From contig JAJRVL010000004.1 in NCBI GenBank assembly GCA_024277355.1, positions 240,001 to 272,000 on the forward strand: a stretch of 32,000 nucleotides of DNA, in the 5' to 3' direction. The DNA is from an archaeon (GTDB taxonomy: Archaea > Iainarchaeota > Iainarchaeia > Iainarchaeales > 1-14-0-10-31-34). The notes beneath the pieces are model-generated. The model ran no database searches. It had not been told where the DNA came from and worked only from the letters and a program-made list of their open reading frames with translations. Each line of letters opens with the position of its first letter. Position 1 is the stretch's first letter. This document shows, piece by piece, positions 6,093 through 32,000 of the stretch. The position numbers and the translations under genes were made by a program.

Positions 6093-7556
6093 ATGACAAA
6101 AGGAAAAGTTACATTTAATATTAATAAAACAAAAAATTTCTCTGAATGGTATACAGAAATAGTCAAAAAAGCAGAATTAGGAGACTTAAGGTATAATGTA
6201 AAAGGATTTGTTATTTTTCAGCCTTGGTCTGTTTTATCAATGGAAAAAATGTATGATTATTTTGAAGAATCACTTCAACTAAAAGGCCATAAACCTTATT
6301 GGTATCCTGCAGTTATTCCTGAAAAAAACTTTTTAATGGAAAAAAACCATGTTAAAGGTTTTGCACCGCAGGTATTTTGGATTACAGAAACAGGCGCAGG
6401 AGAAAAATTAGAATAAAGATTAGCTTTAAGACCTACATCTGAAACTGCTTTTTATCAGATGTTTTCTTTATGGATTCGTTCATATAAAGACCTTCCATTT
6501 AAAACTTACCAAAGAGCACAAGTATTTAGATATGAAACTAAAGCCACAAGACCTTTTTTAAGAAGCAGAGAATTCCACTGGATTGAAACACATAATGCTT
6601 TTGATTCAAAAGAAAATGCATTTAAGCAGGCAGAAGAAGACATGGAAACAACAAAAGAAGTTTTATTAGAAATTTTTGGCATCCCATTTATTTTCTTTGA
6701 AAGACCGCAATGGGATAAATTCCCTGGAGCAGAATCAACTTTTGCTGCAGATACCTTGATGCCTGACGGAAAAATAATTCAACTTCCTTCAACACATATA
6801 ATATCACAAAATTTTACTAAAGCATTTAATGTAAAATTCACTGATGAAAAAGGAAAAGAAAATTTCTGCTGGACTACTTGTTATGGTCCTGCAATAAGCA
6901 GAATTTTTGCAGCAATGATTTCAATTCACGGAGACGAAAAAGGATTAATTTTTCCTTTTCCTGTTGCACCAGTAAAAGCAGTAATTATACCAATATTTAA
7001 TGAAAAAAACAAGGAAAAAGTTTTGAAGGAAACAGAAGAAATAAAGAAAAAACTAATTAAAGAAAAAATCAGAACAGAAATTGATTTAACTGACAAAAAT
7101 ATGGGAGAAAAATTTTATTTCTGGGAAATGAAAGGAGTTCCATTTAGAATAGATTTAGGTAAAAAAGAACTCAAAGAAAAAAAAGCAACAGTTTTTATCA
7201 GACATTCAGGGAAAAAAACAAAAGAAAAAATTTCTAATTTAAATGAATTTATTTTAAAAGAAGGAAAAAAACAATTAGTTGAACTAAAAGAAAAATCAGA
7301 AAACTTTTTTATGAATTCAGTAAGCGAAGTGCATTCAATTGAAGAAGCAAAAAAACAAATAGAAAAAGGAAGAATTGTAAAAACTGAATTCTGTTCTGTT
7401 TTAATGACAGGTTATTCTTGTGCAGAAAAAATAGAAAAACAATTAAATGCAAGTGTAAGAGGAACAAAATTAAATGAAAAAGAAAAACCTAAAGGAAAAT
7501 GCATTGTCTGCGGAAAAAAAGCAGAAAAAATCGTTTATATTGCAAAATCTTATTAA
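6093..7556 (+). CDS. proS: Prolyl-tRNA synthetase, archaeal/eukaryal type, interrupted by one in-frame TAA (6414-6416)
   Basis: ORFs 6093-6416 and 6459-7556 are in the same frame. The full in-frame reading is [37 protein letters not shown]...FRYETK. N-terminal FSEWYTEIVKKAEL, a C-terminal Cys-rich zinc domain, and a terminal Tyr (IAKSY-TAA). Confidence 0.9.
6414..6416 (+). other. In-frame TAA inside proS
   Basis: gaa TAA aga tta gct tta aga cct aca tct gaa. The conserved RPTSE motif follows in frame. Confidence 0.95.
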
Positions 7557-20246: not shown

Positions 20247-21314
20247 ATGGCTTTAGAAATTCTTTCACAAACTTTTTTTGGAATTACATTACAAAACATT
20301 CTGATTTCTTTAGGAATAGCAGTTGGAGCATATATTATAGGAAAAATAGTTTATTATTTATTCAAAACAGTTGGAAGAAAATTAACTGCAAAAACAAAAA
20401 CAGACTTAGACGATGTTTTAATTGACATAATTGAAGAACCAATAGTAGCAATAATAGTTTTAGTCGGAGTATTTATTGCATTTACTTTTTTAGGAATACA
20501 AGACAAAGGAATAAACGGATTATTTAATTCTGTTTTTAAAATTGCAGTAATAATTGTTTTAGCTTGGACTGCATTTAGATTTATTAATGCATTAAGCGAC
20601 AAAATCTTAATTCCATTAAGCAAAAAAACAAAAGCTTCATTTGACGATCATCTTGTTCCATTAATTTCCAAAGGAGCAAAAGCAATAGTTGCAGTAATTG
20701 CAGTAATAATGATCATGGATTCAATTGGATTTGATGTAACTGCATTAATTGCAGGATTAGGAATTGGAGGTCTGGCAATAGCTTTTGCAGCACAAGAAAC
20801 AATATCAAATTTATTCGGCGGAATATCCTTAATGTTAGACAAATCAATTAAAATCGGAGATAAAATAAGAATAGATTCCGGCGAAGTAGGAGTAGTAAAC
20901 GAAATAGGATTAAGAAGCACAAGAATCAGAACTTTTTCAAATGAAGTAATAATTGTTCCAAACTCAAAAATGGCTAACAGTAAAATAATTAATTACGCCC
21001 AGCCAAACAATTACGGAAGAGGACAAATAAAATTCGGTGTAACTTATGGAACTGAACCCGCAAAAGTACAAAAAATAGTTTTAGATATCTTAAAAAATAA
21101 TTTAAAAGTTTCAAAAAAAGAAGACAGAAAACCAGTAGTTGAATTTCTTTCAATGGGAGATTTTTCATTAAACTTTACAGCAAAATTCTGGTGCGATGAT
21201 TACACAAACGTATGGTCAGCAGAAAGAGAATTAACAACAGCAATCTATAATGGATTAAACAAAAACAAAATTGGAATACCTTTCCCAACACAAACAGTTT
21301 ACCTGCAAAAATAA
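20247..21314 (+). CDS. Small-conductance mechanosensitive channel (MscS family)
   Basis: 355-aa ORF with N-terminal TM helices, then AAQETISNLFGGISLMLDKSIKIGDKIRI...GVVNEIGLRSTRIRTFSNEVIIVPNSKM. Confidence 0.85.
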   Translation: MALEILSQTFFGITLQNILISLGIAVGAYIIGKIVYYLFKTVGRKLTAKTKTDLDDVLIDIIEEPIVAIIVLVGVFIAFTFLGIQDKGINGLFNSVFKIAVIIVLAWTAFRFINALSDKILIPLSKKTKASFDDHLVPLISKGAKAIVAVIAVIMIMDSIGFDVTALIAGLGIGGLAIAFAAQETISNLFGGISLMLDKSIKIGDKIRIDSGEVGVVNEIGLRSTRIRTFSNEVIIVPNSKMANSKIINYAQPNNYGRGQIKFGVTYGTEPAKVQKIVLDILKNNLKVSKKEDRKPVVEFLSMGDFSLNFTAKFWCDDYTNVWSAERELTTAIYNGLNKNKIGIPFPTQTVYLQK

Positions 21315-25995: not shown

Positions 25996-27045
25996 ATGAC
26001 AACTTATTCTGAAGCAGGAGTAAACATAGAAAAAGGAACTGAAACAGTCAAAAGAATAAAAAAACACGTTAAATCTACTTTTAATGAAAATGTATTGCTT
26101 GATTCAGGTTTATTTGCAGGCGCAATAGACTTAAAAAAAATAAAAAAAATGAATAATCCTGTGTTGCTTTCAAGCATTGACGGAGTAGGAACCAAAACAG
26201 TTATAGCAGAAAAAATGAATAAATGGGATTCAATTGGACAAGATTTAGTTAATCATTCAGTTAATGACATTTTATGCCATGGAGGAGAACCAATTGCTTT
26301 TTTAGATTATGTTGCTTCTTCTTCAATTAAACCTGAAATAATAGAAGAAATAGTTCAAGGAATGACAGTTGCATGCAAAGAAAATGGAGTTGCATTAATT
26401 GGCGGGGAAACAGCAGAAATGCCTGATGTATACCAAGAAAATGAAATAGACTTAGCAGGAACAATACTTGGAATAGTAGAAAAAGAAAAACTTATTACAG
26501 GAAAAAACATAAAAGAAAAAGATGTACTTATTGCATTGCCTTCAAATGGTTTGCATACAAACGGATATTCTCTTGCAAGAAAAGTAATAGAAAAAACAAA
26601 AATAAGCCTGAAAGAACAGTTTGTAGTAGAAAAAGAAGATTTAACTATTGGAGGAGAACTCTTAAAAATCCATAAAAGTTATCTGAAAGAAGTAAGTTTT
26701 TTATTAAAAAAATTTGAATTAAAAGGAATTTCTCATATTACCGGCGGAGGATTAATTGATAATTTGCCAAGAATTTTTCCTGAAGGAATTGGAGCAAAAA
26801 TAAATCCAAACAAAATTAAAATTCCATTTATTTTTGAATGGATTCAAGAAAATGGAGTTATTTAAGAAGAAGAAATGTTTAAGACATTTAACATGGGAGT
26901 TGGAATGGTTTTAATTGTATCAGAAAAAGATTCAGATAAAATTATTTCAGAACTAAAAAAACAATTTAATTCAAATGCAATTGTAATTGGAGAAACAATT
27001 AAAGGAAAAGGAATTCAATTAGAAAAACCTTTATTTAAAGAATAA
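25996..27045 (+). CDS. purM: Phosphoribosylformylglycinamidine cyclo-ligase (AIR synthetase), interrupted by one in-frame TAA (26863-26865)
   Basis: YSEAGVNIEKG, DGVGTK and NDILCHGGEPIAFLDY. After FEWIQENGVI-TAA the same frame continues EEEMFKTFNMGVGMVLIV...IGETIKG, the conserved PurM C-terminus, ending at TAA 27043-27045. Confidence 0.85.
26863..26865 (+). other. In-frame TAA inside purM
   Basis: gga gtt att TAA gaa gaa gaa atg ttt aag aca ttt aac atg gga. Confidence 0.95.
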
Positions 27046-31537: not shown

Positions 31538-32000
31538 CTTATATTCTGGGATTAAGCTGCTATTACCATGACTCTTCCGCCTGCCTGCTTAAAAACGGAA
31601 AAATAATTGCAGCAGCAGAAGAAGAAAGATTTACAAGAAAAAAACACGACAACTCTTTTCCTTTTAATGCAATAACATTCTGCTTAAAAAAAGAAAAAAT
31701 CACAATACAAGAAATAAACTTTATTGCTTTTTATTAAAAACCTTTAATTAAATACGAAAGAATTCTTTCACAATACATTGAAACTTTTCCTTTAGGTTTT
31801 GTGAATTTTATTAAGAATATGCCTTTATGGCTGACAGAAAAATTAAAAGTAAGAGAAACAATCAAAAAAAAACTTAAATTTAAAGGAGACATTTTTTTTA
31901 TTGAACACCACTTATCACACGCAGCAAGTGCATTTCTTTGTTCTCCTTTTCAGGAAGCAGCAATACTTACAATTGACGGAGTAGGCGAATGGACTACAAC
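31534..32000 (+). CDS. NodU/CmcH-family carbamoyltransferase (3-prime partial), interrupted by one in-frame TAA (31735-31737)
   Basis: MTYILGLSCYYHDSSACLLKNGKIIAAAEEERFTRKKHD...IAFY-TAA-KPLIKYERIL...FIEHHLSHAASAF...ILTIDGVGEW, all in one frame. Runs off the window end. Confidence 0.85.
31735..31737 (+). other. In-frame TAA inside the carbamoyltransferase gene
   Basis: att gct ttt tat TAA aaa cct tta att aaa tac gaa aga. Confidence 0.95.

Follow-up and report, generated by a model that had tools for sequence, protein, structure and literature searches.

An in-frame TAA in the only proS gene found in a DPANN archaeon is best explained as one of an assembly-specific series of G:C-to-T:A lesions

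How could an archaeon translate proline codons if the only gene for prolyl-tRNA synthetase (ProRS) found in its genome, proS, is interrupted by an in-frame TAA? The gene lies in the window analysed here, a 32,000-nt stretch (positions 240001-272000 of contig C2) from the assembly of a small DPANN archaeon (1.13 Mb in 11 contigs, 28% G+C, 96% complete, 0.7% contaminated). The initial annotation, made from the letters of this stretch, described a proS broken by a TAA just before the RPTSE motif and held that the stop must be decoded if no second copy exists. The description proved right in every detail (the TAA at 6414-6416, both open reading frames, their common frame). On comparative and statistical evidence, and taking the deposited consensus base as given, we assign a probability of about 0.8 to a different account of the stop, in which the TAA would belong to an assembly-specific series of unselected G:C-to-T:A lesions rather than to a decoding mechanism, with Glu108 present in the working enzyme.

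As deposited, proS consists of two open reading frames in one frame, 6093-6416 (107 aa) and 6459-7556 (365 aa), and the TAA, which lies in the frame of the ATG at 6093, interrupts at codon 108 what is otherwise a perfect archaeal-type gene. Its parts are as follows.

6093..6413, + strand: proS codons 1-107, N-terminal section of the class II core with the motif-1-like GHKPYWYPAVIP
6414..6416, + strand: in-frame TAA in the Glu108 column; all five congeners have GAA, from which it differs by a single G-to-T
6417..7556, + strand: proS codons 109-487 and the true terminator TAA (7554-7556)
6459..6461, + strand: first in-frame ATG past the TAA, 14 codons downstream and beyond RPTSE

The upstream portion (6093..6413) shares 77-80% identity with its congeners and has no other defect. 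In the downstream portion (6417..7556) the RPTSE loop is accompanied by class II motifs 2 and 3 and by the anticodon-binding domain, and the C-terminal domain ends in Tyr; the 365-aa piece has precomputed matches to PF00587, PF03129 and PF09180. Outside the TAA, comparison with the congeners reveals ordinary divergence only. Reading through the stop gives a complete ProRS of the archaeal/eukaryotic type, 487 residues long, which scores 464.3 bits against TIGR00408 (proS_fam_I; curated cut-off 437 bits) with residues 11-487 placed on profile positions 3-475, and which aligns with the ProRS structures of Methanothermobacter (PDB 1nj1, E 1e-99) and Methanocaldococcus (1nj8, E 5e-97) without a break at the stop. 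The likeness to this family (TIGR00408; PDB 1nj1, 1nj8, 1h4q) thus takes in a full-length collinear match, the RPTSE loop, the anticodon-binding domain and the C-terminal Tyr; the difference is that the family is encoded in a single uninterrupted frame, whereas the deposited gene carries a TAA at codon 108.

No second proS was found in the whole assembly (96% complete), whether the C-terminal piece was the query or the entire read-through product. The sole other match was weak (E about 1e-6) and involved a different class IIa synthetase, in its anticodon-binding domain. A much stronger match would be expected from a bacterial-type ProRS, since P0001 matches TIGR00409 at 3.5e-33. The locus accordingly holds the only visible ProRS of the entire assembly, as the initial annotation had supposed for the stretch that it covered. 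Among 40 related genomes (five congeners, three further members of the family, the others from its order), proS is free of internal stops in all 40. The codon in column 108 is GAA in all five congeners, whose proteins are 77-80% identical to this one, in line with the GAA that had been expected at 6414-6416. Across 28 aligned relatives the residue is Glu in 25 and Gln in 3, and in the 119 best homologues from a collection of 5.8 billion proteins it is Glu without exception, adjoining an invariant ALRPTSE (RPTSE itself in 119/119). The nearest ProRS in that collection is 80% identical, so that the collections searched hold no strain-level comparator: a 44-mer, its variable base set to N, was unmatched in genome and metagenome contig collections, and exact look-ups of both fragments, the read-through product and both neighbouring proteins returned this assembly only, or nothing.

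The proS stop is not alone in this assembly. A greedy set of open reading frames covering 93% of the genome contains 104 same-frame junctions at which two accepted frames are split by one stop, most of them ordinary boundaries between genes of an operon, where a start follows within 0-4 codons and a Shine-Dalgarno-like GGAGG or GGTG is present. (This junction analysis replaced a codon-usage log-odds screen for coding across stops, which was dropped when antisense frames also came out positive.) Among the junctions with longer gaps, a Pfam domain runs across the stop in nine enzymes besides proS, and five more genes are interrupted here and unbroken in congeners.

Nine enzymes with a domain-spanned stop: pdxS, purM, nrdD, ferritin-like, pfkB kinase, gltX (GluRS), beta-eliminating lyase, pepA, rtcA
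Five more genes, unbroken in congeners: carbamoyltransferase (window 31735), NiFe-hydrogenase large subunit, thioredoxin-like repeat protein, GT39-like membrane protein, small protein C2:373382

At least 15 private in-frame stops, proS included, are thus present, 13 of them TAA and two TGA (in pepA, encoding leucyl aminopeptidase, and in C2:373382), and at none of the 15 sites was a stop seen in any congener orthologue found. The interrupted genes are otherwise undecayed. Their stops are spread over relative positions of 0.12-0.86 along the gene and affect the essential single-copy genes proS and gltX no less readily than accessory ones, and therefore appear to be unfiltered by selection. Two further members of the series lie within the window.

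26863..26865, + strand: private TAA in purM, spanned by the AIRS_C domain (…ENGVI(stop)EEEMFKTFNMG…); the column is variable in congeners (TCA, CCA, TTA, GAA, TTT), with no stop
31735..31737, + strand: private TAA in a NodU/CmcH-type carbamoyltransferase gene (…FIAFY(stop)KPLIKYE…); GAA in the closest orthologue

Another TAA in the window, at 21312-21314, shares its frame with a 355-aa MscS-like gene and a 627-aa GatE-like gene; the two genes meet here at an ordinary boundary, with 15 codons of spacer, and the TAA is not a lesion.

Substitutions are accompanied by frameshifts. Two genes of aminoacyl-tRNA synthetase families that lie 13-15 kb past the end of the window carry one-base frameshifts (C2:287075-287141 and 285373-285379): an AspRS-like gene is shifted in an A7 run (AGAAGAAAAAAATG), where the product reads …YLDLRRKK / KKKMFNNLLLRH…, and an AsnA-like synthetase gene is shifted at a T3 run. 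At C2:283125-284453 lies another gene of the Asp/AsnRS type, 442 aa long and intact. The clustering of three stops within 26 kb of the window, with the two frameshifts just beyond, was judged informally not to be significant for about 15 sites in 1.13 Mb.

The mutational class of the stops is uniform wherever it can be inferred. Where the congeners allow the ancestral codon to be compared, the columns read as follows.

proS, pdxS, ferritin, gltX, lyase: GAA in congeners, TAA here
Trx-like protein: GAA in three of four congeners, TAA here
carbamoyltransferase: GAA in the close orthologue, TAA here
pfkB: GAA in three congeners and AAA in two, TAA here
rtcA: Ser (TCA/TCC/TCT) in congeners, TAA here
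GT39-like gene: Ser (TCA/TCT) in three congeners and GAA in one, TAA here
pepA: Gly (GGA/GGG/GGC) in congeners, TGA here
purM, nrdD, NiFe hydrogenase, C2:373382: variable column, ancestor not inferable (4 of the 15 sites)

All ten inferable one-step changes are G:C-to-T:A. Under the codon usage of this genome that class makes up 28.8% of the one-step routes to a stop, AAA, TTA and TAT being larger targets, so that the chance of ten out of ten is 0.288^10, or about 4e-6, under equal rates, and it remains small even if G:C-to-T:A changes are several-fold faster. Within the G:C-to-T:A routes the expected shares are 49% for GAA, 25% for GGA and 18% for TCA; since GAA already accounts for about half, nothing special is needed to explain why Glu sites are in excess. 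No shared sequence motif of the kind left by methylation-type systematic error is visible around the lesions.

These observations suggest an account in which proS is a normal archaeal-type gene for a ProRS of one chain, its Glu codon GAA replaced through a single G-to-T, and in which the TAA would take its place among genome-wide lesions untouched by selection, the unshared in-frame stops (at least 15) together with the homopolymer frameshifts. The working enzyme would then carry Glu108 and be made by ordinary translation, and we infer that the T at 6414 is absent from the viable population. In fact, a cell without ProRS and GluRS cannot live, and the stops can therefore not have been inherited in a viable lineage unless they were rescued; no rescue was found. 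The TAA is accordingly best explained as something other than a real biological feature, to judge from the sequence comparisons. As to how the lesions arose, an origin outside the biology of the lineage, in oxidised-guanine-type damage of the template DNA or in an error of the assembly consensus, would, taking the two together, stand at somewhat better than even odds, and mutations that had just arisen in the sampled cells would be possible, although well short of even odds.

Both of the artefactual sources have precedents. Inflated counts of internal stops are a marker of assembly error (Cooley and Wright, 2024, PMC11017572), and the spurious pseudogenes of draft and metagenome-derived assemblies resemble the present case in that lone private stops occur in intact, even essential, genes alongside homopolymer frameshifts, just as many private lesions are here scattered over unrelated genes without regard to selection; unlike them, the substitutions found here are of a single class. 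That class, G-to-T/C-to-A, is the signature of 8-oxoguanine (8-oxoG) formed in sample preparation (Costello et al., 2013, PMC3616734), which likewise strikes regardless of gene function. However, the 8-oxoG artefacts of library preparation are normally found at low allele fraction (Costello et al., 2013), whereas the T here is the consensus base, and for an artefact to become the consensus, coverage or the number of template molecules would have to be low, or polishing at fault.

The reading that survives best after this one is that the TAA is real and stable and that leakage past UAA, unprogrammed and due to a near-cognate tRNA (for Gln, Lys, Tyr or Glu), yields enough full-length ProRS, which we consider improbable. 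It would account for the failure to find a second proS in a genome that is 96% complete and for the undecayed state of proS downstream of the stop; moreover, other essential genes are also stopped, and if those stops are real some tolerance of them is required. Weak termination might be an aid, as the archaeal release factor aRF1 would first have to be spliced from an intein-bearing precursor. The aRF1 gene, which lies outside the window at C2:440408-442309, is an open frame of 918 aa, of which about 500 aa belong to an intein that sits precisely in the catalytic loop, at GGQ/S (…AGGQ/CLSPE…VHN/SAHRF…). However, by inspection the aRF1 motifs themselves are canonical (...SANIKS... for NIKS, YWCDSSF for YxCxxxF, and GGQ/S). 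The context of the proS stop does not look leaky either: the base at +4 is A, the commonest at genuine TAA terminators (46%), and tandem in-frame stops after TAA are not enriched over the other two frames (34% versus 33-37%). Nor can leaky termination rescue the frameshifts of the same region, and a stop within proS is tolerated by none of the 40 relatives.

A stimulatory RNA structure is also lacking in the one place where a candidate had been pointed out.

6435..6462, + strand: 8-bp hairpin (ACATCTGA, 12-nt loop, TCAGATGT), stem 6435-6442 paired with 6455-6462

The hairpin had been called weak and unconvincing as a stimulator in the initial annotation, and this judgement stands. Although present, it is unremarkable, with a z-score of -1.5 and equally good folding in 18 of 200 shuffles, and it is not kept in the congeners, in which synonymous differences in the codons that form the stem (those for TSE and YQM) disrupt the pairing. 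It arises by chance from the coding sequence.

A second possibility is that the stops are real and stem from an in vivo G:C-to-T:A mutator, with defective 8-oxoG repair, and that proS is dead in sampled cells that were non-viable or sustained by a host; to this we give only a slim chance, and it overlaps with the fresh-mutation half of our preferred explanation. The uniform class of the ten inferable changes is what such a mutator would leave, and one repair gene is indeed missing. In three of five congeners a 231-239-aa Fe-S HhH-GPD glycosylase gene directly follows a cation/H+ antiporter gene, whereas no second HhH-GPD glycosylase was found in this genome, in which about 70 bp remain at the syntenic site (C2:287497-287567). 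The extra glycosylase of the congeners is, however, closest to the MagIII-type 3-methyladenine glycosylases (below the family cut-off) and not to OGG or MutY, and its absence therefore does not explain G-to-T changes. Furthermore, no second copy was seen in congener G005 either, and the orthologues of that congener found in these searches are intact. A search for AGOG (PF09171) gave no match anywhere, controls included. Survival is impossible without ProRS and GluRS, and the homopolymer frameshifts are a different class of error, one typical of sequencing. A mutator arising from a genome-specific loss of 8-oxoG repair thus finds no real support in the gene content.

The two preceding ideas may also be combined, such that genuine stops in proS, gltX and nrdD would have arisen under strong in vivo G:C-to-T:A pressure, with leaky termination (perhaps owing to the aRF1 intein) and near-cognate tRNAs restoring the proteins; the likelihood of this combination we would likewise put as slight.

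Programmed recoding, in which TAA would mean Glu at selected sites, as a dual-meaning codon or an incipient change of the code, appears very improbable. It could draw on the presence of Glu (GAA) in relatives at 7-8 of the 13 positions of a private TAA, and on the constancy of Glu in ProRS column 108 among the best homologues, but the large share of GAA among the G:C-to-T:A routes accounts for as much, and the private stops also fall at Ser columns (TAA) and at a Gly column (TGA). These Ser and Gly sites, like the TGA stops, therefore exclude a rule by which TAA equals Glu, and point to a signature of mutation or damage. TAA has not been retired as a terminator: it is the main one, ending about 66% of long open reading frames (676 of 1024 with at least 150 codons, and 510 of 756 with at least 200). 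ARAGORN, which found 26 tRNAs when introns were disallowed and 43 when they were permitted, listed no UUA, CUA or UCA anticodon among the 43, a search that split or unusual tRNAs could escape. The same 43 include a single tRNA-Pro, with the anticodon GGG; the common CCA codons would call for a UGG tRNA-Pro as well, whose gene may be split or may escape detection through an unusual intron.

Programmed stop decoding as known from archaea, by selenocysteine at UGA with a SECIS element or by pyrrolysine at UAG, is similar in that an in-frame stop interrupts the gene for an essential or conserved enzyme and the sequence beyond it is intact. Here, in contrast, the codon is TAA, the columns are those of Glu, Ser and Gly, no dedicated tRNA was found, and the stop is neither conserved in orthologues nor followed by a conserved RNA element; the private sites share no common sequence context. 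What would mark programmed read-through, namely a conserved stop, a dedicated or suppressor tRNA and a stimulatory structure or leaky context, was not observed, and the same is true of the marks of stop-codon reassignment, a codon withdrawn from termination, a single amino acid at the recoded sites and altered release-factor motifs. Decoding of the TAA is thus not supported by tRNA, release-factor, context or conservation evidence. The claim that the TAA must be decoded also assumes that the deposited base is that of the living cell, an assumption made doubtful by the private stops in many unrelated genes of this assembly, which are G:C-to-T:A wherever the ancestor can be inferred.

A two-piece ProRS, formed by the 107-aa N-terminal fragment and a C-terminal protein restarted downstream, has a practically negligible probability even though both pieces are open and conserved, since the 14 codons between the TAA and the ATG at 6459 (AGA TTA GCT TTA AGA CCT ACA TCT GAA ACT GCT TTT TAT CAG) contain no ATG, GTG or TTG, a restart at 6459 would therefore delete the 14 residues that bear the invariant RPTSE, and the enzyme is a single chain of 480-583 aa in every relative and in all 119 best homologues; here the earlier reasoning, that such a restart would cost the enzyme its RPTSE and that a split gene offers no rescue, was borne out.

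Decoding of the TAA would make this the first case of UAA read as sense in an archaeon, with an essential synthetase as the gene concerned, but the evidence argues against it. The 10-15 nonsense hits, which sample about 18% of G:C sites, extrapolate to roughly one G:C-to-T:A change blind to selection per 10-20 kb of this genome. The practical value of the finding is therefore cautionary, in that the in-frame stops of this genome should not be taken for recoding, pseudogenisation or split genes unless the reads have been checked.
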